In this document: positions 34,474 to 56,554 of the stretch, piece after piece
Layout of the letters: each line of letters begins with the position of its first letter
How positions within the stretch are numbered: the first letter of the stretch is position 1
NCBI GenBank assembly: GCA_006226565.1
Contig: SBGO01000716.1
Coordinates: forward strand, 307 to 64,306
DNA from: Deltaproteobacteria bacterium
GTDB taxonomy: Bacteria > Myxococcota_A > UBA9042 > PHBI01
DNA length: 64,000 nt
Direction of reading: 5' to 3'
Position numbers and translations under genes: made by a program
The notes under the pieces: model-generated
What the model saw: the letters and a program-made list of their open reading frames with translations, nothing else
Told to the model about the DNA's origin: nothing
Databases searched by the model: none

Positions 34474-34474
<1 letters not shown>
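29996..34474 (-). CDS. Large N6-adenine DNA methyltransferase (gamma-class, Eco57I/DrmMI/PglX-like), about 1490 aa
   Basis: Motif I VLDPAMGSGHFLVEA and motif IV VLGNPPW, with YYTPHPFVRFLV before motif I. Start assigned to ATG 34474 (MAFDLRDC), which overlaps the SNF2 stop as TGATG. The ORF-track start at 34690 is an Arg/Pro-rich extension. Confidence 0.75.
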
Positions 34475-37887
<3,413 letters not shown>

Positions 37888-38154: not shown

Positions 38155-39763
<1,609 letters not shown>

Positions 39764-39774
<11 letters not shown>

Positions 39775-40735
39775 GCTCGTCGCGGCCGCCCTGGGCTGCG
39801 TGGCGCTACTCGCCGCTACGCCACCATTTGCGCGGGCGGCCGCCCCACCCGACGCACCGCCACCGGCCGCAGTCGAGCGCCCCGTCCAGGACGTCATCGA
39901 TGCCGCCAAGGCCGCGTTCGAGGACGGACGTTACGAGGAGGCCTTCGCAGGCTTCGAGGAAGCCCAGAAGCGGACCGGACAGGTAGGAATCTTCTACCCG
40001 ATCGCGCGCTGCTACGAAGAGCTCGACCGGCTCGAGGAGGCGCTGGCAGCCTACGAGCGCGTCGCCGCCGCCGAGTCCGTCCCCGCGGCAGCGCGCGGCA
40101 AGGCGGACACAGCGGCGCGCCTCCTTCGCGACCGGCTCGCCACCGGGCGCCTGGTTCTGCAGGTGTCACCGTTCGGCGCGACGGTCCTCGTCGACGGCGC
40201 GGTCGTCGGCACCGCTCCCGTCGAGCCTCTCGACGTCGCGCCGGGCAAACACACGGTCGCGGTGCGCCGCGTCGGGTTCTCAACGATGACCCGGGACGTC
40301 GATGTGCAGGGCGCCCGCACCGCCACCGTCGTCGTGGAGCTCGCGGCGGCGGTCGAGAAGCCCGTCGAGCCCCCCGACGACGGCGCGTCGTTCTGGCCCT
40401 GGGTCACGCTCGGCGTAGGCGGCGCCGTCTCCATCGGAGGCGCGATCTCGGTGTGGTCAGGTGAGCAAGACCACCTCGAGATCACGCAGGCCGAGGGCTA
40501 CTCCGAAGGGCAGCTCGTCGACATGTCTCGGGACCGCGCCCTGGCCCTCGAGGCGAGCGGCGACGACAAGAAGCTCGTCGGGTGGATCCTCGTCGGCGTC
40601 GGGAGCGCGGTCATGGTCGGCTCCGCCGTCTGGCTCGCGTTGGACGCGCCACCCGAGGGCGAAGGAACGACAGTCGTGCCGACGGCGAGCGTGACCCCGG
40701 GCGGGGCGGCGCTCGGCGCCGTGGGGAGGTTCTAG
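39764..40735 (+). CDS. Secreted TPR-like/PEGA-domain protein with a C-terminal TM segment
   Basis: Signal peptide. PEGA-like VLVDGAVVGTAPVEPLDVAPGKHTVAVRRVGF. Overlaps the kinase stop. Confidence 0.6.
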
Positions 40736-41371
40736 ATGCGGGCTCTACGCTTGGGCCTCGTGGGCGTGATGCTGGTGCTCGCCAGCTGCACGAACCCGGA
40801 CCTGAACGGAAAGGTCTACCCGTGCGGCGAAGGTGGCGCATGCGGGTCTGGATACTCGTGCGTCGACGGGCTCTGCCGCCCCGAAGGCTGGACGCCCCCC
40901 GCCGACACGACCGAGGCGGATACGACCTCGCCCGACACTTTCATTTCCGACACGACCATGGTCGACACCTCCGATGACGACACCGTCGCACCGGACACGG
41001 TCGAGCTGGACACCGTCGTGGCAACCGACACGGTTGAGGTGGACACGACCGACACGGTCGAGGCGGACACCACCGACATTGTCGAGGCGGACACCGCCGA
41101 CACGGTCGAGGCGGACACGATGGTCGCAGATACAGTCGAGTTCGACACTGTGGCGGCCGACACCGAGATCGGCGACACGACGACGGTTGAGGACACGGTG
41201 GTTGGCGACACGACAGTCGGTGGGTGGCTCGTGCGTGAGGGGACGTGGCCCACCTTCACAGGCGAGAGCGTGTCCACGAGCGGCTGGCGTCTGGTCCCGA
41301 CAGGGTCCGGCCAGCGGTTCACCGGCTCGAGCGTGTCCACGAGCGGCTGGCGACTCACACCCACGCAGTGA
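40736..41371 (+). CDS. Lipoprotein with acidic tandem repeats
   Basis: Lipobox LVLASC. About ten DT(V/I)E(A/V/L)DT repeats. Duplicated C-terminal 20-mer FTGESVSTSGWRLVPT / FTGSSVSTSGWRLTPT. Confidence 0.6.
   Translation: MRALRLGLVGVMLVLASCTNPDLNGKVYPCGEGGACGSGYSCVDGLCRPEGWTPPADTTEADTTSPDTFISDTTMVDTSDDDTVAPDTVELDTVVATDTVEVDTTDTVEADTTDIVEADTADTVEADTMVADTVEFDTVAADTEIGDTTTVEDTVVGDTTVGGWLVREGTWPTFTGESVSTSGWRLVPTGSGQRFTGSSVSTSGWRLTPTQ
40960..41220 (+). repeat. Degenerate tandem DNA repeat with an 18-bp period (gacacggtcgaggcggac-type) encoding the DTVEADT repeats
   Basis: Repeated gacac(g/c)gtcga(g/c)g(c/t)ggac units are visible in the sequence. Confidence 0.5.
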
Positions 41372-41423
41372 GGGCAGCGGCGATGAGCTACGGCAGAGGC
41401 ATCGACGTCCGGGGAGGCGAGCG

Positions 41424-44012
41424 ATGACGACATGGCGATGGGTTTTCGTGGCGCTGGTCTGCGTCGTCGGCTGGGCTCCCGGCGCGGCGCTCGCGGTCCC
41501 GCCCGGCGTCCCCTACAGCGGCTATCTCGAAGACGCCGCTGGGACACCCTACGAAGGCGCGCTCGACGTAGAGGCGACGCTCTTCGACGTCGCAGACGGG
41601 GGCGACGCGCTGTGGGGACCGGTGGTCCTCGCAGGGGTGACCGCCGTGGGCGGCCACTTCGAGGTCGTGCTCGACGACGCGGGCGCGCCGCTCGGTGAGG
41701 CTCTGGCGGGCCTGGGTGACGCGTACTTCGCGTTCCGCGTGAAGCCTGCGGGCGAGGACTGGATCGCCCTCGAAGGCATGCAGCGCCTGGGTTCCGTGGC
41801 GTTCGCCCATCACGCCGGCAACGCCGAGCGGCTGGGGGGCGTGGACGCCGCCGAGTTCCTGACCTCGGACGAGATCGCCGGGACCTACGCGAAGGCGAGC
41901 GACCTGGCCGCGGTGGCGACCAGCGGCGACTACGCGGACCTGACCAACCGGCCGGACCTGTCAGGCTACGCGCTGACCGCCGACCTCGCCGGCGTCTGCT
42001 TCTCCGGCTCGTACAATGATCTCGTCGGCGAGCCTGATCTGTCAGTCTTTGTAACGATCGACGCTCTCGCCGCGGTCGCGACGACTGGGAGCTATGCGGA
42101 TCTCACGAACCGGCCCGACCTATCGGTCTACGCGCTGACCTCGAACCTATCGGTGGTCGCCACGACCGGGCAGTACGCGGACCTGCTCGGCAAGCCCGAC
42201 CTCAGCGTCTACGCGCCCCTGTCGTCGCTCGCGACGGTCGCGATGAGCGGGAGCTACTTCGACGTCTTGGGCGCGCCGGACCCGGACGCGCTGGTCTGGC
42301 GCGACGGTAGCAAGGCACTGACCGGGGACCTCGACCTTGCCGGCCACGCGCTGAAGAACGCGGCGCTGCATCCGAGCGCGGATCCGCCTTCCGACCCCGT
42401 CGTCGGTCAGCTCTGGTTCGACACGGCGACCCAGGTCCTGCGCGTCTACACCGACGCCCGCTGGCAGGGCATCAGCGGCTCCGTCAGCCTGCCTCCCGAC
42501 GGTCTGTCGACCGTGTCGAACGGGACCCTGACCAACGTGTTCACGGCCGGCGGAACGAGCACCGACGTCCCCATTGACATCCCCGACAACTACCCGCCGG
42601 GTGTCGTCGCGAGCCTGACCATCGACGACAGCGGCACGCTGCGCTCGCTGTCCGTCCATGTCGCCATCACCCACCCCGAAGCCACCGAGCTGAGGTTGGT
42701 GCTCACCGCGCCAGGCGGCGAGGAGTTCGTCCTTCACGACAGCGGGGCAGGGACGAGCGGCGGCCTCGACGCCACCTGGCCCCCGACGGCGCTCGTCACC
42801 GGCGACTTCGCGGTTCTTGTCGGCACCTCACCTGCCGGCGCATGGACCTTGTCGGTCGCTGACGTCGTGTACTCCGGCGGCGCGCCTGGCGACATCGCCG
42901 GCCAGATGACAGACTTCTCCGTCACCTACGAGGTCCTCCGTGACGACGAGGTTGCGGTCAACGGCACCCTGACCGTGAACGGCGAGGATGTCGCTGGCGA
43001 GCTCGCCTCGCTGCAGACGGAGCTGGCTCAGCTTCAGGAGACCGTTGCGGAGTCCTGGTGCGCGGTAAACTGCGGTCCTGAGACGACGCCGAACGAATGC
43101 GTGGAGGCTCGTTGTGACGGGGCCTCAAGGGCGTGCGCCTTTGACCCAGTTCCGGATGGAACGGCCTGTAGCCTGGGGCATTGCTCAAACGGTGCGTGCG
43201 TGTGCGGCTCGCTGGGCACGGACTGCCCGCCGAGCTTTGAATGCACAAACGATGAGTTCTGTGAGAATGCGGCCACCGGCGAAATCTGGGTACCTGCAGG
43301 TGACTTCTGGATGGGCTGCAATGCGGCCACCGAGCAGTGCCAGCCTGATGCGGACTACCTGCCTCAGCACTTGGTAACTCTCGACTCGTACGCAGTCGAC
43401 CGGCACGAAATCACATCCGAAGAATACGGAGCCTGCGTTGCCGCCGGCGCGTGCCAGCCCCCCAACTCGGGCTCCCTGGCAACCTACGGCCAACCCGCGA
43501 AGGCCCAACATCCGGTCAACTATGTGAATTGGGCGCACGCAGACACCTATTGCGCATGGAGCGGGAAGCCGCAGGGGGTACAGCGGCTCTGCACGGAGGC
43601 CGAATGGGAACGCGCGGCACGCGGTGGTTGCGAGACCATCACTGGAAATTGCGTTGATGGAATGCGAGCTTTCCCGTGGGGTGAAGACGACCCGACACCA
43701 GAACTGGCAAATTACGGAGGCAATGTCGGCGAGACCACGGTTGTCGGCACCTACTCACCGGCAGGCGACTCTCCATACGGCGCCCAGGACATGGGAGGAA
43801 ACGTCTGGGAGTGGGTGAGAGACTGGTACGGCGTCTATCCAGACTACCCAGTCACGAACCCAACTGGTCCCGGGACGGGGACCTACCACATCCTCCGAGG
43901 GGGTCACTGGGGCCTGCCTGCTTCGGGAATGCGCACATCGGGGAGGGTCCACCCACCCAGCTATGCTGCGTATGACGTCGGGTTCCGGTGCTGCCGGACG
44001 ATCGTCCCATGA
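41424..44012 (+). CDS. Secreted protein: phage-tail-fibre-like repeats plus P-domain plus C-terminal formylglycine-generating-enzyme (FGE/SUMF1) domain; paralog 1
   Basis: Signal peptide MTTWRWVFVALVCVVGWAPGAALA. Repeats of the SGDYADLTNRPDLS type. P-domain DIPDNYPPGVVASLTIDDSGTLRSLSVHVAITHPEATELRLVLTAPGG...AWTLSV. FGE motifs HPVNYVNW, RLCTEAEWERAARGG, GNVWEWV, RGGHW and FRCCR. Confidence 0.75.
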   Translation: MTTWRWVFVALVCVVGWAPGAALAVPPGVPYSGYLEDAAGTPYEGALDVEATLFDVADGGDALWGPVVLAGVTAVGGHFEVVLDDAGAPLGEALAGLGDAYFAFRVKPAGEDWIALEGMQRLGSVAFAHHAGNAERLGGVDAAEFLTSDEIAGTYAKASDLAAVATSGDYADLTNRPDLSGYALTADLAGVCFSGSYNDLVGEPDLSVFVTIDALAAVATTGSYADLTNRPDLSVYALTSNLSVVATTGQYADLLGKPDLSVYAPLSSLATVAMSGSYFDVLGAPDPDALVWRDGSKALTGDLDLAGHALKNAALHPSADPPSDPVVGQLWFDTATQVLRVYTDARWQGISGSVSLPPDGLSTVSNGTLTNVFTAGGTSTDVPIDIPDNYPPGVVASLTIDDSGTLRSLSVHVAITHPEATELRLVLTAPGGEEFVLHDSGAGTSGGLDATWPPTALVTGDFAVLVGTSPAGAWTLSVADVVYSGGAPGDIAGQMTDFSVTYEVLRDDEVAVNGTLTVNGEDVAGELASLQTELAQLQETVAESWCAVNCGPETTPNECVEARCDGASRACAFDPVPDGTACSLGHCSNGACVCGSLGTDCPPSFECTNDEFCENAATGEIWVPAGDFWMGCNAATEQCQPDADYLPQHLVTLDSYAVDRHEITSEEYGACVAAGACQPPNSGSLATYGQPAKAQHPVNYVNWAHADTYCAWSGKPQGVQRLCTEAEWERAARGGCETITGNCVDGMRAFPWGEDDPTPELANYGGNVGETTVVGTYSPAGDSPYGAQDMGGNVWEWVRDWYGVYPDYPVTNPTGPGTGTYHILRGGHWGLPASGMRTSGRVHPPSYAAYDVGFRCCRTIVP

Positions 44013-46510
44013 GCCAATCAGCAAGAGCACAAATGACGAAACACGCTGTTGGGTGGTCTCTTGCACTGTGCGCGCTCGTCGCTATCCCCAGCGTTGCTGA
44101 TGCTGCACCACCCGGACTCAGGTTCGGCGGCTATCTGGAGAGTTCCGCGGGGACACCGTACGGCGGTTCGGTGGATGTCGAGACGACACTCTTTGACGTC
44201 GAACTTGGTGGCGACGCGCTCTGGGGGCCCGTGGTTTTCTTGAACGTTCCCATCGACACGGGCCGCTTCGAGGTCGTGCTCGACGCCAGTACCCCGCTGG
44301 GTGACGCATTTGCGGGACTGGGAAGCGCGTACTTCGCCTTCCGAGTTCGTCCCGAGGGACAGGACTGGATTGCGTTGGAGGGCAGGCAACGCGCGGGTTC
44401 CGTTGGATTCGCGCACCAGGTGGCCGACTCCGAGCGACTCAGAGGCATCGACGGAGCGGAGTTCCTCTCGTCGTCCGAGCTGTCTGGGACCTACATCACG
44501 TTGACTGCGCTTGCACCCGTGGCGACGAGCGGCAGCTACGACGACCTCGCGAGTCGACCGAGCCTCACGGGCTATGCATTGACCAACAACCTCGCAGGCG
44601 TCTGCTTCTCCGGCTCCTACGACGACCTCGTGGACCAGCCGGACCTCGCCGTCTTCGTGACCTCCGATGCCCTCGCGACGGTGGCGACGAGCGGCGACTA
44701 CGGCGACATCTCGAGTCGACCCGACCTCTCCGTTTACGCGCTGACCGGCGACCTCGCGCTCGTCGCGACGAGCGGACAGTACGCGAATCTGCTCGGGAAG
44801 CCCGGTCTCAGCGCGCTCGCGCCGGTATCCTCGCTGGCCGCGGTGGCGATGACCGGGAGCTACTTCGACCTCCTGGGCGCACCCGACCCGGATGCGCTGG
44901 TCTGGCGTGATGGGAGCCGCGCGATGACCGGCGACCTCAACCTGGGCGGGCACGCGGTCCGGAACGTCGCGATCCATCCGAGCGCAGCGGCACCGACATC
45001 ACCTGTTGTCGGCCAGGGCTGGTTCGACACCACCTCGCGGACCCTGGAAGTCTACACCGACGGCGGCTGGAAGGCGCTGGAGGGGACAGCAAACCTCCCG
45101 AGCGACGGCCTCTCGACCGTGTCCAACGGCACGCTGAGCAACGTCTTCACCGACGGCGGCGTGAGCGGCGACGTCCCCCTCGACATTCCTGACAACTACC
45201 CGCCCGGCGTCGCTGCGAGCCTGACCATCGACGACAGCGGCACGCTCCGGTCCCTGTCCATCCACATCGCCATCACCCACCCCGATGCCACCGAGTTGAA
45301 GCTCGTCCTGACAGCGTCGGGCGGCCAGCAGTACACGCTCCACGACGGTGGCACCGGCACGAGCGGCGGTCTCGACGCCACCTGGCCTCCCGCTCCGGTC
45401 GTCGCCGGTGACCTCGGCGCGCTCGTGGGCACCTCGCCCACGGGCATGTGGACGTTGTCCGTCGCGGACTCCGTCTACTCTGGCGGCGCCCCCGGCGACA
45501 TCTCCGGCCAACTGACCGACTTCTCCATCACGTACGAGGTTCTGCGGTACGACGAGGTCGGCGTCACCGGCACGCTGACGGTCGGCGGCAAGGACGTCGC
45601 GGCGGAGCTTGCCGCCCTACGAGCAGAGGTCGAGCTACTCCGAGCCCGAGTTGCGCCATGTGGGCTCCTCCGATCCCCGTGCGCAACCGGATTCCGATGC
45701 ACCACACTCGGAACCTGCGTGAACGAGAGCGCGTCTGAAGCGTGGATTCCCGCAGGCGTGTTCTGGATGGGCTGCAACAGCGCCCAAGACGCCAACTGCG
45801 GATCAAACGAAGCACCTCAGAATGAAGTCGTGCTCACGTCTTTCGCGATCGACCGATTCGAGGTGAGCGCTGCAGACTACGCCGCGTGTGTGTCCGCCGG
45901 AGTATGCACTCAACCAGGAGGGGGCTCGGCAGCGACGTACGGGGTCGCGGGAAAAGAACAGCACCCTGTCAACCAGGTCACATGGGATAGGGCAGTCAGC
46001 TATTGCGCCTGGACCGGCAAACCCGCGGGTGCTCAGCGACTTTGTTCCGAGGCCGAGTGGGAGAAAGCTGCCCGCGGAGGGTGCGAAACGGCGTCCGGCG
46101 AATGCGCGCAGACCATGCGCGTGCACCCGTGGGATCGTGGGGACGAAACGCCCCCAACCGCGCCGGACTGTGATCTGGCGAACTTCGCGTCCGGCTCAAT
46201 CCCAGCCAGTTGCGAGCCCGATTCCTTCACGAGCGCGGTTGGCAGCCACCCCAGCGGCGCTTCGCCATATGGGGCCGAGGACATGCTCGGCAACGTGGCC
46301 GAGTGGGTCGCTGACTGGTACTCAGACTCCTACCCTGACACCGGCCCCCTCACGGATCCCATCGGGCCGACCACGGGCACACTGCGAGTAGTCCGAGGCG
46401 GAGATTTCCAGACGGCCCCCAACGCCCTCCGGTCTTCATCCCGGTTTGGATGGGATCCGGGTTCTCCTGCTGGCGACGTAGGCTTCCGCTGCTGTCGTAC
46501 CCTTCCCTGA
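44009..46510 (+). CDS. Paralog 2 of the tail-fibre-repeat/P-domain/FGE protein
   Basis: Same architecture as paralog 1. ATGA overlap with paralog 1. An alternative start is ATG 44033 (MTKHAVGW, signal-peptide-like). Confidence 0.75.
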   Translation: MSQSARAQMTKHAVGWSLALCALVAIPSVADAAPPGLRFGGYLESSAGTPYGGSVDVETTLFDVELGGDALWGPVVFLNVPIDTGRFEVVLDASTPLGDAFAGLGSAYFAFRVRPEGQDWIALEGRQRAGSVGFAHQVADSERLRGIDGAEFLSSSELSGTYITLTALAPVATSGSYDDLASRPSLTGYALTNNLAGVCFSGSYDDLVDQPDLAVFVTSDALATVATSGDYGDISSRPDLSVYALTGDLALVATSGQYANLLGKPGLSALAPVSSLAAVAMTGSYFDLLGAPDPDALVWRDGSRAMTGDLNLGGHAVRNVAIHPSAAAPTSPVVGQGWFDTTSRTLEVYTDGGWKALEGTANLPSDGLSTVSNGTLSNVFTDGGVSGDVPLDIPDNYPPGVAASLTIDDSGTLRSLSIHIAITHPDATELKLVLTASGGQQYTLHDGGTGTSGGLDATWPPAPVVAGDLGALVGTSPTGMWTLSVADSVYSGGAPGDISGQLTDFSITYEVLRYDEVGVTGTLTVGGKDVAAELAALRAEVELLRARVAPCGLLRSPCATGFRCTTLGTCVNESASEAWIPAGVFWMGCNSAQDANCGSNEAPQNEVVLTSFAIDRFEVSAADYAACVSAGVCTQPGGGSAATYGVAGKEQHPVNQVTWDRAVSYCAWTGKPAGAQRLCSEAEWEKAARGGCETASGECAQTMRVHPWDRGDETPPTAPDCDLANFASGSIPASCEPDSFTSAVGSHPSGASPYGAEDMLGNVAEWVADWYSDSYPDTGPLTDPIGPTTGTLRVVRGGDFQTAPNALRSSSRFGWDPGSPAGDVGFRCCRTLP

Positions 46511-46525
46511 ATCGTGGGTTGAAGC

Positions 46526-49135
46526 ATGTCCCGCTGGATCTCCCTTTTCCTGCTGCTCCTCTTCTCGCTCGCACCGAGCGCCGATGCGCGCGCCGTCCCT
46601 CCCGGAGTGCCCTACACCGGCCATCTCGTGGACGGCGGCGGTGCGCCATTTAGTGGCCTCACCGACGTCGAGGCAACCGCCTTTGCCACCGCCGATTCGG
46701 GGGCGCCGATCTGGGGCCCAATCGTATTCGCTGCCGTCACGGTGGAAGGAGGACGCTTCGAAGTGGTCCTCGACGCTGTCGATGCACCGCTCGCCGATGC
46801 GCTTCAAGGCCTCGACAGTGCGTACTTCGCGTTCCGTATCCGGCCCCAGGGCCAGGACTGGATCGCCCTGGAAGGCAGGCAGCGTCTGGGTTCTGTCGGG
46901 TTTGCGTATCAGGCTGACAACGCCGAGCGACTCGGCGGCGTAGACGCGGCGGACTTTCCGACCGCGGCCGAAATGGACGGGGTCTACGCGAAGGCGAGCG
47001 GCCTCGCCTCCGTCGCCGCAAGTGGCGACTACGCCGACCTGACCGGCCGGCCGAACCTGTCTGGCTATGCGCTCACGAACGACCTCGCGGGCGTGTGCTT
47101 CTCCGGCTCCTACGACGACCTCGTGGACCAGCCGAACCTCGCAGTCTTCGTGACGACAGACGCCCTCGCGATAGTGGCGACGAGCGGGAACTACAGTGAC
47201 CTAATCAACCGCCCGGACCTCTCCGTCTACGCACTGACTGCGGACGTTGCCATGGTCGCAACGACCGGTCAGTACACCGATCTCGCCGGCAAGCCCGACC
47301 TCAGCGTCTACGCGACGACGTCGTCGCTCGCCACGGTCGCGACCACAGGAGACTACCTCGACCTCATCGGCGCGCCCGACCCCAACGCCTTCGTCCAGCG
47401 TGACGGCAGCAAGGCGCTGATCGGCGACCTGGACCTCGACCGTCACGTAGTGCTCAACGCGGCGCTCCACCCGAGCCCGACCGCCCCGGCCAATCCGTCC
47501 ATCGGCCAGGGCTGGTTCGACACCGCGAAACAGAGCCTCATGGTCTACACCGACACCGGCTGGCAGCCCGTCGGCGGCCCCGTCGCGCTCCCGGATGACG
47601 GCCTCGCGGCTGTCTCCAACGGCGTCCTGACCAATGTGTTCACCTCCACGGTCGCGAGCGACACCCTCCCTCTGGACATCCCCGACAACTATCCGCCCGG
47701 CGTCGTGGCGAGCCTGACCATCGACGACAGCGGCACGCTCCGCTCCCTGTCGGTCCACGTCGCCATCACTCACCCGGACGCCTCCGAACTCCTGGTCGTA
47801 CTTACCGTGCCCGGCGGTCAGCAGTTCGCCCTCCACGACGGCGGTCTTGGAACGACCGGCGGCCTGGACGCCGTCTGGCCGCCGACGGGGCTTGTGACTG
47901 GGGACCTCGCGTCCCTTCGGGGGATTTCGCCGAGCGGAACGTGGACGGTCTCGGTCATCGATGGCGTGTACTCTGGCGGAGCCCCAGGGAGCGTGGTGGG
48001 AACGGTCGACGCGTTCGAAATGACCTACGACATCTTGCGGGACGGCGAAGCTGAGGTCGGTGGAACGCTGACGGTCGACGGGCGAGACGTCGGCACAGAG
48101 GTCGCCACGTTGCGCGCAGCGCTCGGCGAGCTTCGCCAACGAATAGACGAGTCCTGGTGCTCCGCGAACTGTGGCCCCTTGACCTTCGGGAACGGCTGCA
48201 CAGAGCCTCTGTGCGATGGCATCGGCCACAGCTGTGGCCCGGGCAACGCCAAGCTCGACTTTGCTCCGTGCTCGGAAGGAGCCTGTATCGCAGGCGAGTG
48301 CCTCCCTCCCTGTGGCCAACTTGGTGTCCCCTGCCCGTCAAGCTTCGCATGCACCCCGGATGGCAACTGCGAGAACCCCACCACCGGTGAGGTGCGCATA
48401 CCGGCCGGGACGTTCTGGATGGGCTGCAACAGTACGCTGGACGCGGAATGCAACAGCGACGAACTCGCCCAACACGAAGTGACCCTGCCGACCTACACGA
48501 TCGACCGTCAGGAGGTCACCGCAGCGGAATACAAGGTTTGCGTCGAGGCAGGAGCCTGCTCGCTGCCCTCTACGACGGGTGGCGACTACGGCAACTATGA
48601 CGTTGCGATCAGGCAGGGGCATCCGATCAACTTCGTCACCTGGAGCCAAGCGGCCGAATACTGCGCGTGGGACGGCAAGGCGCCTGCTACCCAGCGACTC
48701 TGCACGGAGGCTGAGTGGGAGCGGGCTGCCCGCGGCGGGTGCGAGACGATCGACGGAGACTGCAAAACGGGCATGCGCAAGTACCCGTGGGGTCAAGTAG
48801 ATCCGACCTGCGACTACTCCAACTTCAGAATAGACAATGGGGGCTACTACTGTGAGCCGGGGGGACGGACGGCTCATGTTGGGAGCCACCCCGCCGGTGA
48901 TTCGCCCTATGGTGTTCAAGACATGGCAGGCAATGTAGCGGAGTGGGTTGGCGACTGGTATTCGTCATCCTACGCAGCGGACCCCGTCACCGCTCCCTTG
49001 GGCCCGGCCACTGGCACCGCTCGTTTCGCGCGCGGTGGTGGTGGTGCGAGTTTCGCCAGCAGCTTACGCTGTTCTGCGCGTCCCACCGGAGTTGGAGCGC
49101 CGTGGATAGGGTTTCGGTGCTGCAGATCTTGGTAG
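46526..49135 (+). CDS. Paralog 3 of the tail-fibre-repeat/P-domain/FGE protein
   Basis: Signal peptide MSRWISLFLLLLFSLAPSADA. Same repeats, P-domain and FGE motifs. Confidence 0.75.
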   Translation: MSRWISLFLLLLFSLAPSADARAVPPGVPYTGHLVDGGGAPFSGLTDVEATAFATADSGAPIWGPIVFAAVTVEGGRFEVVLDAVDAPLADALQGLDSAYFAFRIRPQGQDWIALEGRQRLGSVGFAYQADNAERLGGVDAADFPTAAEMDGVYAKASGLASVAASGDYADLTGRPNLSGYALTNDLAGVCFSGSYDDLVDQPNLAVFVTTDALAIVATSGNYSDLINRPDLSVYALTADVAMVATTGQYTDLAGKPDLSVYATTSSLATVATTGDYLDLIGAPDPNAFVQRDGSKALIGDLDLDRHVVLNAALHPSPTAPANPSIGQGWFDTAKQSLMVYTDTGWQPVGGPVALPDDGLAAVSNGVLTNVFTSTVASDTLPLDIPDNYPPGVVASLTIDDSGTLRSLSVHVAITHPDASELLVVLTVPGGQQFALHDGGLGTTGGLDAVWPPTGLVTGDLASLRGISPSGTWTVSVIDGVYSGGAPGSVVGTVDAFEMTYDILRDGEAEVGGTLTVDGRDVGTEVATLRAALGELRQRIDESWCSANCGPLTFGNGCTEPLCDGIGHSCGPGNAKLDFAPCSEGACIAGECLPPCGQLGVPCPSSFACTPDGNCENPTTGEVRIPAGTFWMGCNSTLDAECNSDELAQHEVTLPTYTIDRQEVTAAEYKVCVEAGACSLPSTTGGDYGNYDVAIRQGHPINFVTWSQAAEYCAWDGKAPATQRLCTEAEWERAARGGCETIDGDCKTGMRKYPWGQVDPTCDYSNFRIDNGGYYCEPGGRTAHVGSHPAGDSPYGVQDMAGNVAEWVGDWYSSSYAADPVTAPLGPATGTARFARGGGGASFASSLRCSARPTGVGAPWIGFRCCRSW

Positions 49136-49187: not shown

Positions 49188-50648
49188 TCACCGCTTCTTT
49201 GATCGCTTCGCGACGATCGCCGCGTTGTCGTTGAGTCGCGCCACGAGCTGCCCGGTCGTTGCCTTGCTCACAGAGGTCACGCCGGCAGCGGCCAGCGCCT
49301 CGGTGATCTCTCGCGCCCGCACCGGGCGGTTCTCCGCGTAGGCTGACGCGGCGAGGTCCGCCAGCGCCTCCGCGACGGATTCCGCGTAGTTCCCCGGGAG
49401 CTCGGAGAGAACCGAAGACGCTTTGGTCTTGAAGTGCGTGAAGAGGCCCGGGTCGGCGCGAAGCCGATCTCCGCGATGGTTGACGGCCCACTTGCCGAGC
49501 CGCGAGCGCCGCGGCGCGTTGGCGTCGACCGCCCCGGACATCATGCCGCCCGCGAGCGACGTCAGGATCTTCGTTCCGAACCGCTGCTGCGCAGCGGCGA
49601 ACTCCGCGCCTGGGTCGGCCTTCCACCGCTCCTTCGCTGCCGGGTCGAAGGCCCAGGCGTCGACCTCCTCGACCAGAGCCCTGAGCGTACCGATGACCTC
49701 GGCCTTCGCTCCCTCTTTCAGGGCCAGCTCGGCTGCGCGAAGGAGCCAGCTCTTCGAGGTCTTCGCGATCGCACCCGGGCTCAGGTGAGCGAGCTTGTTC
49801 ACACTAGGGCTCGCCCCGAGCAGCGCGAAGCCGCCCTCGATGAGCCCCTTTCGGAAGCCCTCGGCGCCCCCGGCGGCGACCTTCTTCCAGTCGACCTTGC
49901 CGTCGGACACCAGCTCTCCGAGCACGGTGCCTCCTGCCTGAACAGCCCCGGCAGCCGTGCCGGCAGCCAACGTCCCCGCGATCGCACCGCCCGCCGTGCC
50001 AAGGACCGGCGCCGCGATGGCCGCGACCGCTGGGGCGGTGAGGATCGCCAGCTCGGCGATGGCGATGTCACGGACGACGGTCGCGACGGCCTCGGCGGTA
50101 GCGAGGTTGTCCGCACGGTGGCCGAGGTAGTCGCTGAACTCCTTCCGGAACCCCTGTCCGAACTCGATGCCCTTCTGGAGCGCGCGCAGCCCCTCGGGGA
50201 TCTTCCCTGCGGCGAGCAGGTGGTTCGCCTTCGTCAGGAGGGTGAACACGTTGTTCCACCGGGAGGCCTCCGGCGCCTTGCGCGCGAACAGCGTCCCGGA
50301 CTTGTACGCGAGCTCGTCCTGGTAGGAGCTTGAGAACCCCTGGAGGACGTGCGCCAGCAGCCGCAGGTTGCGGTCACGGATGCCCTCGAGCTTCGTTGCC
50401 TCCGAAGCCGGGTCCTTGCCTGACGCGGCTGGCTTCGCAGCATTCGCATTCCCCTGCCCTGCCGCCCCGCTCGCCGGCTTCCTCGACTGGTTGGGCTGCA
50501 GGTGCTCGGAAGCCTCGGCATACGTCATCGCACGCAGCTCCGGTCGCACCGGCCCGGCCATCGACTGTTGCGGCGGGACACACATGGGCGCGGAGCTCGT
50601 CTTGCGCTTGAGGATTGACGCGGGATCAAAGAAGGAGCTCATGTTCAC
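49188..50648 (-). CDS. Hypothetical protein with a central Gly/Ala-rich hydrophobic (glycine-zipper-like) segment
   Basis: No recognisable catalytic motif. Hydrophobic stretch AIAELAILTAPAVAAIAAPVLGTAGGAIAGTLAAGTAAGAV. Confidence 0.4.
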   Translation of the reverse strand: MNMSSFFDPASILKRKTSSAPMCVPPQQSMAGPVRPELRAMTYAEASEHLQPNQSRKPASGAAGQGNANAAKPAASGKDPASEATKLEGIRDRNLRLLAHVLQGFSSSYQDELAYKSGTLFARKAPEASRWNNVFTLLTKANHLLAAGKIPEGLRALQKGIEFGQGFRKEFSDYLGHRADNLATAEAVATVVRDIAIAELAILTAPAVAAIAAPVLGTAGGAIAGTLAAGTAAGAVQAGGTVLGELVSDGKVDWKKVAAGGAEGFRKGLIEGGFALLGASPSVNKLAHLSPGAIAKTSKSWLLRAAELALKEGAKAEVIGTLRALVEEVDAWAFDPAAKERWKADPGAEFAAAQQRFGTKILTSLAGGMMSGAVDANAPRRSRLGKWAVNHRGDRLRADPGLFTHFKTKASSVLSELPGNYAESVAEALADLAASAYAENRPVRAREITEALAAAGVTSVSKATTGQLVARLNDNAAIVAKRSKKR

Positions 50649-50703: not shown

Positions 50704-51312
50704 TTAAGGGGCGCGCCGCTGTCTCGGTGAGGCCACGTTCGGGAGGCGCTCGCCTCCTACGATCCACGGAAGCAGCCTGGCGATGTTCCTCGCGTCGTCA
50801 AGTGCGCGATGGTGAGCGCCCTCGAGCTCAAGGCCGACGAGGCGAAGCGCCTTCGCCATGCCGTAGCGCTTGCGACGGCCCTGCGCGGCGGAGAACACGT
50901 TCTTCAGGTTCATGTGCTCCAGCATCGGGTAGTCGACGCCGTGGAAGGCACAGTCCCGCCGGAGCTGCGTGTCGTCGAAGAGCCCCCACGAGCCCCAGAC
51001 CACGCCCCACCGCCCGACGAGCATCGCCTGGCGAAGCGACTCCATCGCCTCGGGGAACGCGGGGGCGTCGGCGAGCATCTCCTGCGAGATGCCCGTCAGC
51101 TCGGTGCAGAACGCTGTCAACGTCGGGTGTCGGACCGGCCGCACGAAGGTCTGGAACTCGGCCTCGGTCGTGAGCGTGCTCGCGCGAACGAGCACGGCGC
51201 CGATCTCGATCGTCTCCATCTCGTCGCGCGGCAGGCTCCCGTCGTCGCTCGTCGTCGCCTCGAGATCGATGACCAGGTAGTGCTTGACCTCACGCAGCTC
51301 GGGGCCGGTCAC
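50704..51312 (-). CDS. DEDDh-type 3'-5' exonuclease (DnaQ-like)
   Basis: Exo I motif [10 protein letters not shown] and Exo III motif [15 protein letters not shown]. The GTG start at 51312 overlaps the upstream ORF stop as GTGA. The long Arg/Gly-rich N-terminal extension in the ORF track is rejected. Confidence 0.65.
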
Positions 51313-51560
51313 AGCTTCTCCGCCAGCCCCGACGCGAGCATCGCGCGGACGAAGGACGCGGCCTTCTCGTCGTCCGTCGCCCCGTCGACCTCGAGGTCGA
51401 CGTCGTTCATCCGCCCTGCCTGGTCCACCGCCCAGTCGATGTACTCCGACAGCGTGCGCCGCTCCTGGCCGAACGCCAGGGCGTGCATCGACTCCGCGAT
51501 CTGCTTCGCCGTCCCCTCGAGCACCCGACCGTCCGCCGTCATCCGAATCCTCATCGCCAC
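51309..51560 (-). CDS. Hypothetical small protein
   Basis: Coding-like composition. Translationally coupled to both flanking genes. Confidence 0.35.
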
Positions 51561-52009
51561 ACCTCCGTCCTGTCACCGTGGTCCAACCAGTCACCGCTCG
51601 CGATGCGCGGCCGCCCGCGCACCTGCGCCGCCGACAGCAAGTAGGCCTGGACCTCCTCGCCGTCCTCGAGCCGGATCGGCCGCCGCTCGTAGAAGCCCGG
51701 GTGCCCCTCGAGGCGGTCGAGCGCCGCGAGCGTCCTCGGCCCGACCTCATAGACCTCCCCGATCACCGCCGTCGCGCCGCCCGGCACCATCGCCGGGAAC
51801 GCGCCCAAGCTCACGAGCTCGAACACGGCCTCGCTCCGCGCGCGCCCTCCAGCGCCAGCCGGAGATCGACCGGGTCGAAGCCCCTCGAACAGCTCCCCAA
51901 AGTAAGACAGCGTTGGCGGCGCAGCGTCCGCCCCCGCCTTCACAGATACGTAGGCGGGTGACGCCGACTGCCGTCGGAAGCCGCCGAAAAGCGCCAGCGA
52001 CCGCCACAA
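51551..52009 (-). CDS. Gamma-glutamyl cyclotransferase-like (AIG2/GGCT fold) protein
   Basis: ...[21 protein letters not shown]...[31 protein letters not shown] resembles the GGCT/BtrG core. The start is uncertain. Confidence 0.55.
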
Positions 52010-52042
52010 CGAGCCGGCGCTTCGCGTCCTCGCTCGCGCCCA

Positions 52043-52483
52043 TCAGGCGCCGCGCACGCTCGCTGCGGCGTCCTCCTCACCGAGGCCGGTCAGATACGCC
52101 GCGAGCGCCTGCCGGAACAGGTCCATCCGACTCTTGAGTCCGTGCCGACGCCAGACCTCGTCAAGCGCCGCCACCGTGTCGGTCGGCAGCCGGAGGGGCA
52201 GCACCTTGTGCTCGACCGCCGCCTCACCGGACGCGCGGCGACCGACTGGCCCGACCGGCACCCGCCCGCGGCGGGCCTCGCGGATCTTCCAGACCAAGTA
52301 GCGGGCGTTGCTGGACCTGGTGGGGCGCCCGACCTCCGCGAGGTAGCGGGCCTGCAGCTCCTCGACCGAGAGCTTCGTCAGCGGGGCGGCGGTGCCGGCC
52401 TCGGCGTCGAGGACGGAGGAAGCCGGGGCGGGCTGGCCGGTGGTGTCGGCGTGGTCGGAATGGCCTGGGACGGCCAGGGTCAT
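52043..52483 (-). CDS. Protein with a DUF2924-like N-terminal segment and a C-terminal ribbon-helix-helix-like region
   Basis: [33 protein letters not shown] resembles the DUF2924 N-terminus (compare [31 protein letters not shown] at 63138+). The C-terminus [39 protein letters not shown] is RHH-like. Confidence 0.45.
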
Positions 52484-52506
52484 CGTGGGTCTCCTGGATG
52501 GTGGTT

Positions 52507-52785
52507 TCAGCGAAGGGCGGCGAAGCAGGCGAGGTCGATGGCCCGCGGGTCACTCGTGACGAAGCTGAAGCGGCCCTCGCGCTCGAGCCAGGGCTGGACC
52601 TCGACGCGGTCGTCGGCGGTGACGCCGCCCGCGCGTGCGAGATCCTCGTCGTCATCGAGGTGCTGGCAGTCGTCGGGGTCGGCGGTGCGCTTGAGGACTG
52701 CGACGATGCGGACCTTGTAGCCGCGAAGGTAGCGGTGCTCGTCGCCGTGGTAGGTAGTGGTCGTGCCGATGACGCCTGCTGGCAT
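52507..52785 (-). CDS. Hypothetical small protein
   Basis: ORF with coding-like composition. No motif. Confidence 0.3.
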
Positions 52786-52900
52786 GGTGTCCCTCGTGGT
52801 GCCCGTTGCGAGGTCACGTTCGCTCTTGTGATCGGCGGGCAGCAAGCTGTGCTTGCGGTAATTGTGTATTAAAACAAGGTGTTGTGGTGGGGCGTGGCCG

Positions 52901-54784
52901 TCACCGGAGCCGCCGCGTGCGGAAGTCGAACCCTCGCGCGGGCACCCTTGTGCGAGCTGGCTCGTGCGGCGCCTCGGGCTCGATTGGCGACAGGCGCATC
53001 CCCATCGCGAGCAGGGACTTGAGCGCCGCCGTCGCGTAGACCCTGCAGTCGAGCGCCTCGTTGCGCCGGTTGTTCGGCTTCCACCAGAAGTGCACGGCGC
53101 GGCCGTTGCGGTAGCGGGTGCGGAGACGTTCGGCCGTCAGCTGCGCGAAGTAGACGTCATCGTTGTGCGGCGTGCTGAAGTGGCAGTAGCCCGGCCCCGC
53201 CTCCTCGACCTGGAGCCGCGCGTTGAGGAGCTCTTTCGCGGTGTCGACCCCGACGGCATAGACATCGAACTTGCCGTTCATCGGCCGCCCGGGACGGTTG
53301 TTCCAGATCGGGTGCGGCGAGTGCGCGGTGTTCGGGACACCCTTCGTGGCCCAGACCCGCCGCTGCCTGCGCTCGCGCGTGAACTCGCACACGCGCTGAG
53401 TCATGAACCCAGCGTCGACACACGTCGCCATGACGCTCACACCCTCCGGCACGTTGGGATGCGGGCGCCGCTCGAGCAGAAGCGCGTCGAGCAGCTGCCA
53501 GACCTCTTGCCCGCCCGGGTCGCCCGCGATCACGCGGTAGTCGAGCGACCACGACTCCTCGTCCACGCCCCAGCCGACGATCTCGACCTCGAGTCGGTCG
53601 CCCTGGACGTCGACGCCTGCCGTGACGAGGCAGACGCCAGCGGGGCAGGTCTTGCCGTAGTCCTCTACACGCCATGCGAGCGAGCTCGGGTCGAGGCTGT
53701 GTCCATCGGCCAGGTCCCAGGTCTCCGCGAGGTCAGTGTTCACGAGCACCCGCTGGAGCGCGGTGTCCTTTGTCCGCGTGGCCTTGACCCAGTCCGCCGC
53801 GATGTCGCCCCAACTCCGCCAGCCGTGCGGGCGGTACAGACCCGAGATGACGTAGCCGGTCACCTTCGGGTTGTTGCTCTCGGTCGTCGGCCGCCACTCA
53901 CCACGCTGCAGCATCCAGTCCTTCTCGTGCTGCTCGATGACGCCCTCGCAGTGTGGGCAGACGTAGGCCGCATCATGCGGCTCGCGGCCGAGCTCGCTCC
54001 ACACGACGTGCTCCCACTCGAGCGTCTGCATCGCCTCGCAGCGCGGACACGGGACGAAGTACTTCCGCTGGTCGGTCGGCGAGAAGCCGAGCTGCTGCTG
54101 CTCGGGCGTCCCGACGAACTCCGCCTCGATGCGCGACGCCCCGCGGACTGTCGGCGTCGAGAAGATCAGGACCTTCCGGTTCGAGAACGTCGCGGTGCGC
54201 TTCAGCGCGAGCGCGACCGGGTCGCCCTCGCCATCAACGTCGGCCGGGTATCCGTCGACCTCGTCGAGCACGAGCCGGCGGATGGCCTTCGACCGCAGCT
54301 CCGCCGCGCTGTTGGCGCCCGTTATGACGAGGAAGCCACCCGGGAACTGCTTGCGCGTCGTCGTCGTGCCGCCACGTCGCGACGTCTGGTCGCCGACGAG
54401 CTCCCGCAGAGCGGGCGTCCCGGAGCAGAGCGGGTTGATGCGGTCCCGGGCGTAGTCGCGCGCCGTGGACCAGGTCGGCTGGACCAGCAGGGCAGGGCCG
54501 GGGTCGAGGTGGATGGCGTGTCCCATCCAGTTCTCCGCGACCGAGGTCAGCCCGAGCTGCGCGCCCTTCATGATCACGACGACCTCGCACGGGTCCTGTG
54601 GCGAGAGCCGGTCCATGATCTCGCGGAGGTACGGCGTCCGTTCGGTGCGCCACGGCCCGGGCTCGGCGGACGTCGTCGGAAGCAGGCGGTGCTTGTCCGC
54701 CCAAGCGCTGACGGTCATGTCCGACGGCGGCATCAGGCCGGCCGCGTATGCCTTCAGACACTCCGCGAGCGGGTCACTGGGCAT
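52901..54784 (-). CDS. Phage terminase large subunit, lambda GpA family
   Basis: N-terminal ATPase region [19 protein letters not shown]...[24 protein letters not shown] and the GpA-type C-terminal nuclease region. Start chosen at ATG 54784, because the upstream part of the ORF is Ser/Arg/Pro-rich. Confidence 0.8.
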
Positions 54785-55307
54785 TGCGGGCGAGCTCTTG
54801 GAGGGCGGTGCGGATCTCGCTGTCCAGCCGGAGGCGCACCTCATGGACGTCGTCGAGGGCGGCGAGCTCGGCCGCGAGTCGGCTCGGGATCGCCATGAAG
54901 CGGGCGCGGAGCGCCGCGGCAACGTCGTACCAGCGCTTGGCGACGTCCTCGGTCTTCAAGTAGGTGCCGGACTTGGTCTCGTACTCGAGCTGGCGCAGGC
55001 GCGCGCGGTAGACGGTGTCGGCGGTCTTGGCCTGGGCGTAGGTGCCGGGCGCCGGGCCGGGCGGGGCTTGCGCCGTGCGCACGGGCGGGGAGGGCGGGAG
55101 CGCCTGCGCTCTGGCTTCGGGAGCAGCTGGCCTCTCAACGCGGGGAGCCCCGTCGGGCTCGCGACCGGCGTTCCACTCCGCCATGACGACGTCCGGATCG
55201 AGCGTCCCGTCCGCCAGCACGCTGAGGCGTCCCGCCTTCACCCGCTTGTTCACGGCCTGAGGCGTGACGCCCATGCGACGCGCCAGCTCCTTCTGCGTGA
55301 TGCCCAC
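54774..55307 (-). CDS. Candidate terminase small subunit (HTH DNA-binding protein)
   Basis: HTH GITQKELARRMGVTPQAVNKRVKAGRL. It lies immediately upstream of the large terminase. The GTG start at 55307 shares one base with the TAG stop of the methyltransferase gene. Confidence 0.45.
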   Translation of the reverse strand: MGITQKELARRMGVTPQAVNKRVKAGRLSVLADGTLDPDVVMAEWNAGREPDGAPRVERPAAPEARAQALPPSPPVRTAQAPPGPAPGTYAQAKTADTVYRARLRQLEYETKSGTYLKTEDVAKRWYDVAAALRARFMAIPSRLAAELAALDDVHEVRLRLDSEIRTALQELARNAQ

Positions 55308-56554
55308 TACAGGACCTCGCCCATCGGGAAGACGGCGCCGTCGCTCTCTCGGACGGCCTCGACGCCGGTGAGCTGGCACCAGCGCCGCACCGCGACGTCC
55401 ACGTAGCGCGGCTCGAGCTCCATCGCGAAGCAGCGGCGCCCGAGCTGCTCAGCGGCGATGATCTGCGTGCCCGAGCCGGAGAACGGCTCGTAGCAGACGT
55501 CGCCCGGGCGGGTGTGCTGCTCCATCGGGATGGCGAACGCCTGAACCGGCTTCGGCGTCGGGTGGTCGCCATCCTCGAGGTCGCGGACGCGCTCGAGACT
55601 CCAGACCGTCCCGCGCATCTTCGTGTCCTTGTTGCGGCGCGGCTTGTGAGGCCGCACCCAGCCCATGAGGCAGGGCTCGTGCTGCCAGGTGTACCAGGAG
55701 TACGTCAGGACGCCCGATGGCTTCGCCCAGATGATCTGCTGGTGGACGAACGCGCCGACCTGCTCCCAGACCGCCTGGAGCTTCGCGTGGTGGACAGACG
55801 CGTACCAACAGTACCAGGCCGCGTCCTCTCGGATGGCGAGCTCGCGCGCCGTTCGACAGAAGCGGAGCCAGAGGTCGTCGTTCCGTTCGGCGTCTGCGTC
55901 GTCCCACTCCTGGTCGTCGTAGCCAACGAGGTACGGCGGATCCGTGGCGAAAAGGACGGCCCGCTCGCCGGCCATGAGGCGCGTGACGTCCTCGGCGGAG
56001 GTGCAGTCGCCGCACAAGAGCCGGTGGTTGCCAAGAACCCAGAGGTCACCCGGCTGCGTGAAGGCTTCCGCCGGTGGGGCAGGGGGGGCGTCCTCGACGA
56101 CCTCGCTGGCGGGCGTCGACTCGGTGGCGAGCAGGTCCCGGAGCGCGTCCTCATCGAACCCGAGGTCGTCGATGTCGAAGCCGTCGACCTGCAGCGAGCT
56201 CATGAGCGCGGCGAGGACCTCCTCGTCCCACTCGGCGAGCTCGGCCGTCCGGTTGTCGGCGATGGCGAAGCCGGTCGCGGTCGTCGCGTCGTCGTCGACG
56301 ATGACCGCGGCGAGGTGACTCCAACCCAGAGCCCGGGCGGCGGCGAGGGTGCCGTTTCCCGCCTCGACCACCATCCCGGCGCGCCGCACGACGATGGGCT
56401 TGCGCTGGCCAAAGCGGACGAGGCTCGCCTTGATGGCGTCGAGGTTGACGTCGGGGTGCTTGCGCGCGTTGGCCGGGTCTTCGTGGAGGTCCGGCAGCGG
56501 CACGGCGAGGTGACGCAGCGGCTCGACGATGAGCGCCGTGGACTCCGTCATCAC
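55307..56554 (-). CDS. ParB-like nuclease domain fused to a DNA methyltransferase (DPPY-type N6-adenine/N4-cytosine)
   Basis: ParB N-terminal domain LRHLAVPLPDLHEDPANARKHP...GNGTLAAARALGW. Methyltransferase motif IV FATDPPY and motif I YEPFSGSGTQIIAAEQLGRRCFAMEL. Confidence 0.8.
   Translation of the reverse strand: MMTESTALIVEPLRHLAVPLPDLHEDPANARKHPDVNLDAIKASLVRFGQRKPIVVRRAGMVVEAGNGTLAAARALGWSHLAAVIVDDDATTATGFAIADNRTAELAEWDEEVLAALMSSLQVDGFDIDDLGFDEDALRDLLATESTPASEVVEDAPPAPPAEAFTQPGDLWVLGNHRLLCGDCTSAEDVTRLMAGERAVLFATDPPYLVGYDDQEWDDADAERNDDLWLRFCRTARELAIREDAAWYCWYASVHHAKLQAVWEQVGAFVHQQIIWAKPSGVLTYSWYTWQHEPCLMGWVRPHKPRRNKDTKMRGTVWSLERVRDLEDGDHPTPKPVQAFAIPMEQHTRPGDVCYEPFSGSGTQIIAAEQLGRRCFAMELEPRYVDVAVRRWCQLTGVEAVRESDGAVFPMGEVL

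Follow-up and report, generated by a model that had tools for sequence, protein, structure and literature searches.

What is the role of three consecutive genes whose products each join an export signal and phage tail fiber-like repeats to a domain of the formylglycine-generating enzyme (FGE) family? The genes lie within 64,000 nucleotides of DNA (positions 307 to 64,306 of contig SBGO01000716.1, hereafter the window), which have a G+C content of about 68% and come from a 79.8-kb contig of a metagenome-assembled genome (MAG) labeled 'Deltaproteobacteria bacterium' at NCBI. All three products are annotated there as 'hypothetical protein', and a preliminary description of the window, made from its sequence, fairly called the combination of domains unusual. 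In this paper we argue that the genes probably encode three exported, likely trimeric fiber adhesins whose non-catalytic FGE/C-type-lectin tips recognize different ligands, and that they are fixed tandem paralogs of fiber relatives diversified by diversity-generating retroelements (DGRs).

The fiber family joins two topics, the exported fiber of mosaic adhesive trimer (MAT) type, known from Bdellovibrio, and the lectin tip of DGR type. As set out in the parts of Caulton et al. (2024; PMC10769870) on which we draw, a MAT fiber consists of a signal peptide, an invariant beta-rich N-terminal domain of about 130 aa, a trimeric phage-like fiber and a swapped tip; one such fiber, Bd2740, has a trimeric C-type-lectin (CLec) tip for which the sole matching trimer is the DGR target Mtd, and the surface element that holds the fibers on the cell is still unidentified. 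Few cellular (non-phage) DGR targets are characterized by experiment; the only ones named in PMC10907252 are that of Legionella, for which diversification was confirmed, and TvpA of Treponema, the structure of which was solved. Related loci in which the DGR is active, decayed, or replaced by three fixed paralogs form a natural comparison set, and they bear on the role of hypervariable tips in free-living, possibly predatory Myxococcota and on how such fibers are mounted, for which a conserved lipoprotein partner is the obvious candidate anchor.

Materials and methods

The full architecture was common to about 16 database proteins, and the surrounding DNA was examined for six loci. Scans of genome contigs and of metagenome contigs with an alignment of the knob and P-domain (described below) and one or two peptide patterns added at least two and at least one new loci, respectively. 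A profile of the N-terminal domain was built from 16 N-domains and searched against 1.84 billion cluster representatives. Tips were aligned with HMMER to 6muj, 2q17, S. coelicolor FGE (...RGGSYLCHDSYCNRYR...) and human FGE (...GGSYMCHRSYCYRYR...). The template repeat (TR) and variable repeat (VR) of locus L001 were detected by whole-locus blastn, a pair which a simple ungapped repeat search missed. Rates of nonsynonymous (dN) and synonymous (dS) substitution were obtained pairwise among the three paralogs by the method of Nei and Gojobori.

Architecture of the three genes

The tandem triplication proposed in the preliminary description is borne out: three consecutive open reading frames (ORFs) on the + strand share one architecture (Table 1). 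The order in which it had read the domains, from repeats through P-domain and linker to FGE domain, agrees with Pfam, with Foldseek on the predicted model and with tandem-repeat analysis, and the Sec-type signal peptide that makes these secreted proteins can be read directly from the sequence. It had missed the MAT-type N-terminal domain, the link of the tip to DGR variable proteins and the upstream lipoprotein as a conserved partner. Pairwise amino acid identity among the paralogs is 59-63%, and they are colinear except for a deletion of about 45 residues in the Cys-rich linker of paralog 2, for which an alternative ATG start at 44009 would give 833 aa. Additional copies of any fiber domain were not found elsewhere within the window.

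The FGE-type tip

FGE-sulfatase (PF03781) is matched by paralogs 1, 2 and 3 at E 6e-43, 2e-44 and 1e-40, as the preliminary description had expected, and Foldseek relates the predicted tip to the FGE structures 1z70, 2q17 and 5nxl at E 1e-9 to 1e-8. Sequence matches in the PDB include FGE, EgtB, ToxD, CalU17, PvdO and TvpA, the last of which, a DGR variable protein (PDB 2y3c), is matched directly at E 1e-10. The tips thus have the fold of SUMF1/FGE, but they lack both of its catalytic copper-binding cysteines. Where S. coelicolor FGE has LCHDSYC and human FGE has MCHRSYC, copy 1 shows Leu in place of the first Cys and has no residue aligned with the second; the pair is absent from all three copies, and a direct scan of the last 75 residues found no CxxxxC in the three paralogs or in 13 relatives. 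The enzymatic reading of the preliminary description, which had itself named loss of these cysteines as the sign of a binding-only module, is therefore given up, and a catalytic FGE is rejected. Because the pair is missing, the tips are best regarded as putative binding modules of C-type-lectin fold, and the label 'FGE-sulfatase' does not here denote a sulfatase-maturing enzyme.

Another enzyme of the superfamily, secreted in order to oxidize an extracellular substrate and merely targeted by the fiber, would also account for the strong FGE-sulfatase match, and EgtB, ToxD, CalU17 and PvdO are enzymes which do without the FGE Cys pair as well. EgtB and OvoA, however, require a DinB/iron-binding domain, and none is present in the window proteins, in which the Pfam scan gave only two domains. 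No sulfatase domain was found among the scanned neighbors, and no sulfatase or biosynthetic genes lie nearby in the window. Variability in the tip is greatest in the segment that would form the active site, and in relatives this segment is the hypervariable target of a DGR, which is incompatible with a conserved active site, and TvpA, which is of the same type and fold, is described as being without FGE activity (PMC5758913). We consider an enzymatic role of this kind highly improbable.

Relation to diversity-generating retroelements

The same last ~45 residues of the tip are hypermutated by a DGR in three related loci. In a Myxococcales MAG (locus L001, fiber protein P0007) the fiber gene is followed by genes for HRDC, bAvd and a reverse transcriptase (RT), and a VR/TR pair was verified: the last 133 nt of the gene are repeated 3.7 kb downstream with 14 mismatches, 13 of which are at adenines of the downstream copy. 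At L009 (P0018), with HRDC and RT downstream, 12 of 12 mismatches are at template adenines, and at L008 (P0012), with RT downstream, 16 of 20 are. P0007, P0012 and P0018 are thus bona fide DGR targets, and two of these three loci carry HRDC, as do the HRDC-type ('architecture C') cassettes of PMC5758913.

The TR peptides, the verified VRs and the C-termini of relatives have a common scaffold, xGSxRVxRGGxFxxxAxxxRxAxR....P..R....GxRCxR, and alignment with the VR/TR peptides of L001, L008 and L009 shows that the C-termini of paralogs 1-3 fit it too. In this scaffold over the C-terminal ~45 residues, and in having an FGE-sulfatase domain without FGE catalysis, the window proteins are like the FGE-type CLec DGR proteins (category 'b'/CLec1 VR; Wu et al. 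2018, PMC5758913) to which TvpA belongs. Unlike those proteins, they are not accompanied by an RT, an accessory gene or a template repeat. No second copy of any fiber 3' end occurs within the window; tblastn with three RTs, HRDC and bAvd as queries gave no match there at E<0.1; and a trace of adenine mutagenesis was not seen, since 9 of 32 codons at template-Asn positions end in C, against a background of 49%, with no excess of NNC. Indels, in addition to substitutions, separate the three tips. A DGR within the window is rejected on the absence of a 3'-end repeat, of RT, Avd and HRDC, and of an NNC trace, and the window genes are homologs of DGR targets that, within the window, are not DGR targets themselves. 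TvpA of Treponema denticola differs further in being a short lipoprotein, whereas the window fibers have about 860 aa and a separate lipoprotein.

At three other loci no DGR gene was called downstream. Neither at L003 (P0009) nor at L007 (P0006) was a VR/TR pair found, and at L011, where P0014 has the N-domain and P-domain without an FGE tip, the 3.7-kb contig ends just after the gene. At L003, positions 13205-13312 encode a 36-residue fragment that is 67% identical to the HRDC of L009, in an otherwise gene-free gap of 1.3 kb after the fiber gene, and this fragment appears to be what is left of a decayed DGR cassette.

Some further features of the DGR-bearing loci were noted. A second fiber paralog lies downstream of the DGR of L001 (21143-23534); it has the N-domain and repeats of P0007 (61-71% nt identity) and a DUF1554 end. 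The template repeat that was found matched only the 3' end of the first gene, and the second gene runs off the locus. An opposite-strand gene after the RT of L001 holds seven tandem 27-nt repeats (15894-16151). On the 30.8-kb JGI contig that carries P0018, genes for DUF669, DUF2924 and a serine recombinase precede the DGR-linked fiber gene, and downstream of it come a kinase gene, one for a 342-aa protein and two further FGE-sulfatase genes. This arrangement hints at a module able to reside on a mobile element and at a DGR with perhaps several targets.

The stalk

The preliminary description counted about six copies of a tail fiber-like repeat; the likeness to tail fibers stands, and the count is corrected to five per gene with a period of 27 aa. 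Its suggestion of Phage_fiber_2 did not hold, as no Pfam model, that one included, fits the repeats at E<=0.1. They match PHROG 17509 and 30808 (function unknown) and, in tblastn searches of phage genomes, the 'tail fiber protein' of Ralstonia phage phiRSL1 (44.7% identity, E 7e-17) and the 'tail protein', 'long tail fiber protein' and 'minor tail protein' of PA5oct-like Pseudomonas jumbo phages. These phage proteins have the SGxYxDLxxKPDL 27-aa repeat in common with the window proteins at ~44% identity over ~125 residues, but only this region is common, and they are without the N-domain, P-domain and FGE tip. Most low-coverage matches in the first homology search likewise have only the repeat region in common.

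The repeats are followed by a 'knob' motif with the pattern GDLDxxGHxxxN...P..P..GQxWFDT...L.VYTD..W across copies, which longer relatives, P0006 among them, carry in two or three copies. The P-domain then scores above the gathering score of 21 for P_proprotein in paralogs 1-3 (34.2, 25.1 and 25.0 bits), in agreement with the preliminary description, and its model (pLDDT, predicted local distance difference test, 75-93) is matched by Foldseek to the P-domains of furin and Aeromonas ASP at E ~1e-6, with a root mean square deviation of 3.0-3.4 A over ~145 residues. Pfam and NCBIfam scans found no subtilisin-like or other peptidase domain in paralogs 1-3; the P-domain here stands alone, serving as a stalk or binding module. 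In the model, DSSP assigns a helix to slice residues 168-194, which correspond to residues 523-549, and hairpins at pLDDT 70-79; the heptad pattern of the predicted helix is compatible with oligomerization. What had been described as a Cys-rich EGF-like linker is indeed Cys-rich in copies 1 and 3 and is mostly deleted in copy 2, and no EGF model matches it.

The repeats are common to annotated phage tail fibers and PHROG families, and so the three proteins might be receptor-binding tail fibers of a prophage or tailocin, in the manner of Mtd from Bordetella phage BPP-1. At 4-11 kb downstream there are genes for a gpA terminase, a ParB-methylase and a primase; at the P0018 locus the fiber gene is preceded by those for a serine recombinase, DUF669 and DUF2924; and the pairing of a DGR with a CLec tip is classically that of phages (PMC5758913). 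A virion fiber, however, needs neither the Sec signal peptide found in all family members nor a lipoprotein partner, and the DNA between and around the fibers revealed no gene for a capsid, portal, tail tube, sheath or baseplate. The phage-like genes, which lie on the other strand, have the appearance of a remnant, and L003 and L007 lie among housekeeping genes. A virion origin of these fibers strikes us as improbable. Mtd is built of a beta-prism, a beta-sandwich and a CLec domain, which parallel the knob, P-domain and FGE/CLec tip. It is also a tail-fiber tip that bears a DGR-diversified binding surface (PMC5758913), and its CLec trimer mode is given as that of Bd2740 in the parts of PMC10769870 cited above. 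The sequence of Mtd does not detectably match the window proteins, from which Mtd differs in belonging to the virion and lacking a signal peptide; their CLec domain is of the larger FGE subtype, and they have a coiled coil and Cys knots as insertions.

The N-terminal domain and the upstream lipoprotein

A hydrophobic leader ending in A-x-A directly precedes the VPxxVPYxG start of the N-domain in all 20 of 20 family members. The N-domain, of ~125 aa, is predicted by AlphaFold to be a beta-sandwich (pLDDT 83.6), and Foldseek against the PDB gave no neighbor at E<0.02 and only generic Ig-like matches at E>0.02. The sole NCBIfam match of 14 of the 16 family N-domains is NF053851 Bdello_MAT_N, which they reach with 24-28 bits (cut-off 60) over no more than the last ~45 profile positions, and the proteins would not on this basis be counted in the curated Bdellovibrio MAT subfamily. 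Our own profile of the N-domain reached 52,974 representatives at E<=1e-3 and 15,497 at E<=1e-10, nearly always at residues ~20-155, directly behind the leader. Among its 89 best matches, 68 also fit Bdello_MAT_N (best E 5e-20), and the C-termini of these 89 proteins are fibrinogen-like (17), collagen-like (10), FGE-like (3), TafC, NosD and others. Fibrinogen_C/COLFI tips also occur on other proteins with the same repeats and P-domain stalk. The design is thus a mosaic, in which one N-domain or stalk carries swapped ends (FGE, fibrinogen-like/COLFI, collagen-like, TafC, NosD), and transitive homology would place the window proteins in a wider MAT-like superfamily.

The MAT fibers of Bdellovibrio bacteriovorus, as presented in the same parts of PMC10769870, are alike in that the signal peptide is followed at once by a beta-rich N-domain of ~130 aa without a PDB homolog, in the long phage-like fiber with an interchangeable C-terminal binding domain, and in the presence within one genome of several paralogs, conserved in the stalk and diverged in the tip. 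They are unlike in that those passages do not mention a stalk of 27-aa repeat, P-domain and coiled coil, in that the tip in the window is an FGE-type CLec and the window proteins have no S74 chaperone-protease domain, and in that the window comes from a Myxococcota-type MAG rather than from Bdellovibrio and includes a partner lipoprotein.

That lipoprotein recurs with the family. In the window and in L003, L007, L008, L009 and L011 a gene for a lipoprotein of 130-210 aa lies 40-90 nt upstream of the fiber gene, so that it is found directly upstream in six of the seven loci with this N-domain. All six homologs have the lipobox Cys, an acidic low-complexity linker and a C-terminal twin motif of ~20 residues, and a hidden Markov model (HMM) of the twin motif matches exactly one ORF in each of these loci, always directly upstream of the fiber gene. 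At L001, an opposite-strand ORF is found just upstream of the fiber gene in its place. The window has one lipoprotein for three fibers; its twin 21-aa motif reads FTGESVSTSGWRLVPTG and FTGSSVSTSGWRLTPTQ, and the protein has no match in Pfam or PHROG. Two tandem repeats were noted within its gene, one of four 24-nt units at 41000-41118, which encode an acidic 8-aa repeat of DT(V/T)E(A/V)DT type (family D8), and one of two 63-nt units at 41255-41380, which encode the twin motif (family D12). Synteny suggests that the lipoprotein may be an anchor or export partner of the N-domain. It is conceivable, though we would give it no great chance, that this lipoprotein is the MAT-type fiber anchor of the lineage and forms with the fiber, and possibly with the kinase and PEGA protein described below, a recognition module, the tip of which is diversified either by a DGR (L001, L008, L009) or by tandem multiplication after loss of the DGR (the window, and L003 with its decayed HRDC).

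Divergence among the paralogs

The divergence of the paralogs had been taken to suggest diversifying selection, and this was not upheld. Gene-wide dN/dS is 0.22-0.26 and is below 0.5 in every computable region, with dS near or past saturation (about 1.3 gene-wide); positive selection at the level of the gene is unsupported by these ratios. The repeats (dN 0.18-0.22, dS 0.75-0.97) and the P-domain (dN 0.13-0.26, dS 0.73-0.89) have changed least. In the N-terminal and middle parts of the FGE domain (dN 0.36-0.40) and in the Cys-rich linker (dN 0.45-0.65) dS is mostly saturated, and it is saturated in the VR-equivalent end, the last ~47 aa (dN 0.52-0.65); this end and the linker are the regions of highest dN. 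Among the three paralogs 2 of 12 columns at template-Asn positions are invariant, against 15 of 33 others. Because dS is saturated in the tip, selection on single sites there cannot be judged. The stalk would seem to be conserved, perhaps homogenized, and the tip old or fast-evolving, which is no demonstration of positive selection; this contrast of stalk and tip matches the MAT and tail-fiber style of evolution.

Function of the fibers

The explanation we favor is as follows. The Sec signal peptide would export the fiber from the cytoplasm, and the N-domain, right behind the leader, would by its homology to the MAT N-domain be the end nearest the cell, where it is probably held by the upstream lipoprotein, whose twin hairpin motif co-occurs with the fiber family as a conserved gene pair. 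Five 27-aa repeats, knob, P-domain and coiled coil would make up the stalk of a fiber presumably trimeric and displayed on the surface, and the Cys-rich knots and the FGE-type C-type-lectin domain its distal tip. With no DGR in this segment, and with conserved stalks and tips diverged above all in the VR-equivalent surface, the operon may offer three fixed specificities, for which analogy suggests glycans or proteins of other cells or surfaces as ligands.

Several points weigh against this account. The link to MAT fibers is transitive, the curated Bdello_MAT_N match being below threshold and confined to the last ~45 positions. The lipoprotein is tied to anchoring by synteny, and the twin-motif HMM has no match in L001 or in the more distant L005, L006, L010 and L012, the last of which is uninformative, being cut off upstream of its gene. 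The tip model is weak in its C-terminal half, with pLDDT <50 for residues ~755-850, and all models are of monomers, so that trimerization, surface exposure and binding are predictions. PvdO, CalU17 and ToxD, enzymes of the same fold that are not FGEs, also lack the Cys pair, which leaves a narrow opening for catalysis. A Sec-exported fiber would, moreover, need a route across the outer membrane.

Gene neighborhood

The preliminary description accurately placed the fiber genes after a Ser/Thr kinase-PEGA pair and a repeat lipoprotein; the PEGA protein is a membrane protein that also has TPR. Together with the three fiber genes these genes form a same-strand run in which neighbors overlap or are no more than ~50 nt apart, and no terminator-like site was found inside the run from kinase to fibers. 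The kinase has an N-terminal Zn-ribbon-like CxxC...CPH, a Hanks kinase domain, one transmembrane (TM) segment and a low-complexity tail. Kinase homologs (33-39% identity) occur near the fiber genes of L001, L009, L006 and L012, and in L001 and L009 they are adjoined by neighbors weakly similar to the PEGA protein (E 7e-9 to 2e-12). The kinase also fits the PADLOC models for PD-T4-6, a single-gene kinase defense, at E 2.5e-97 and along almost the whole protein; since such models recognize Hanks kinases in general, the fit is a lead and no assignment.

Because Hanks kinases number in the hundreds in Myxococcota, the recurrence of a kinase, and with it a functional link between kinase and fiber, is only suggestive. 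The fibers could nevertheless be extracellular sensors of a ligand or 'antigen' that is read out by the co-transcribed kinase and TPR-PEGA protein in a signaling or conflict system, a reading that is compatible with the adhesin explanation as regards the fiber itself. The close packing of the run and the recurring kinases and PEGA-like partners speak for it, as do the defense island that the locus borders and the fit to PD-T4-6, and CLec domains diversified by DGRs are frequently joined to kinases or conflict systems (PMC5758913; PMC10907252). On the other side, a kinase within ~10 kb is found in about half of the loci, which is close to chance expectation, none is nearby in L003, L007 or L008, an identity of 33-39% is ordinary for the family and the PD-T4-6 models are unspecific; nor does any domain physically link fiber and kinase. 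We judge a sensor unlikely.

Table 1. Position of the fiber genes, their parts and the neighboring genes in the window
Feature	Position	Strand	Basis or remark
Fiber paralog 1	41424..44012	+	862 aa, TNF24078.1
Paralog 1, Sec-type signal peptide (MTTWRWVFVALVCVVGWAPGAALA), residues 1-24, ends ALA	41424..41495	+	read from sequence
Paralog 1, N-terminal beta-sandwich domain (MAT type, presumed cell-proximal anchor), residues 25-150	41496..41873	+	AlphaFold model
Paralog 1, five 27-aa (81-nt) repeats, consensus VATSGxYxDLxxxPDLSxYAxxxxLxx, residues 161-295	41904..42308	+	tandem-repeat families D1, D5
Paralog 1, 'knob' motif (GDLDLAGHALKN...P..P..GQLWFDT...LRVYTD..W), residues 296-355	42309..42488	+	PHROG 8309, 38707
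Paralog 1, P-domain (beta-sandwich), residues 372-505	42537..42938	+	Pfam PF01483
Paralog 1, heptad-Leu helix (residues 523-549) and Cys-rich beta-hairpin linker (550-612)	42990..43259	+	DSSP of model
Paralog 1, FGE-sulfatase/C-type-lectin-fold tip without catalytic cysteines, residues 613-862	43260..44009	+	Pfam, PDB, Foldseek
Paralog 1, VR-equivalent segment, last 46 residues	43872..44009	+	alignment to verified VR/TR peptides
Fiber paralog 2	44033..46510	+	825 aa (NCBI start 44033), TNF24079.1
Paralog 2, FGE domain	about 45734-46498	+	
Paralog 2, VR-equivalent segment	46370-46507	+	
Fiber paralog 3	46526..49135	+	869 aa, TNF24080.1
Paralog 3, FGE domain	about 48380-49126	+	
Paralog 3, VR-equivalent segment	49007-49132	+	
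Membrane Ser/Thr kinase	38155..39774	+	Pfam Pkinase E 6e-52; first gene of run, overlaps next by 11 nt
Signal peptide, TPR, PEGA and C-terminal TM segments; putative kinase partner	39764..40735	+	Pfam PEGA E 3e-10, TPR_19
Putative partner lipoprotein	40736..41371	+	lipobox LASC, short Cys knot, acidic linker, twin C-terminal motif
AbiEii	9960-11432	-	
SLOG+TIR+CHAT protein	15041-18697	+	
Two ThsB-like TIR genes	18838-19425 and 19416-19991		paralogs, ~73% nt identity over matched segments
DruE-like DEAD/MZB helicase	20779-26448	-	PADLOC DruE E 2e-114
Schlafen/AlbA	26560-28251	-	
GmrSD/HEC-05	28271-29962	-	
DrmMI-like Eco57I-type methylase	29996-34690	-	
DrmD-like SNF2 helicase	34474-37887	-	
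DnaQ-like exonuclease	50704-51750	-	
gpA-type large terminase	52901-54922	-	
ParB-N6/N4 methylase fusion	55307-56554	-	
Large primase	57197-60436	-	
Sigma-70 region-4 protein	60433-61167	-	

Upstream of the run, positions 9960-37887 hold a dense anti-phage defense island, which mixes Druantia-like and DISARM-like parts and forms no single canonical system. The SLOG-TIR-CHAT gene is immediately upstream of the ThsB-like pair, and a ThsA-type partner was not seen next to this pair. An ORF for an Ala/Gly-rich protein of 486 aa (49188-50648, - strand), a doubtful gene with no match in Pfam or PHROG, converges on the end of paralog 3. Beyond it, on the - strand at 50704-61167, is a phage-like remnant without capsid or tail genes, which could be a satellite or a degraded prophage, and the genome context as a whole fits a variable, horizontally shuffled region.

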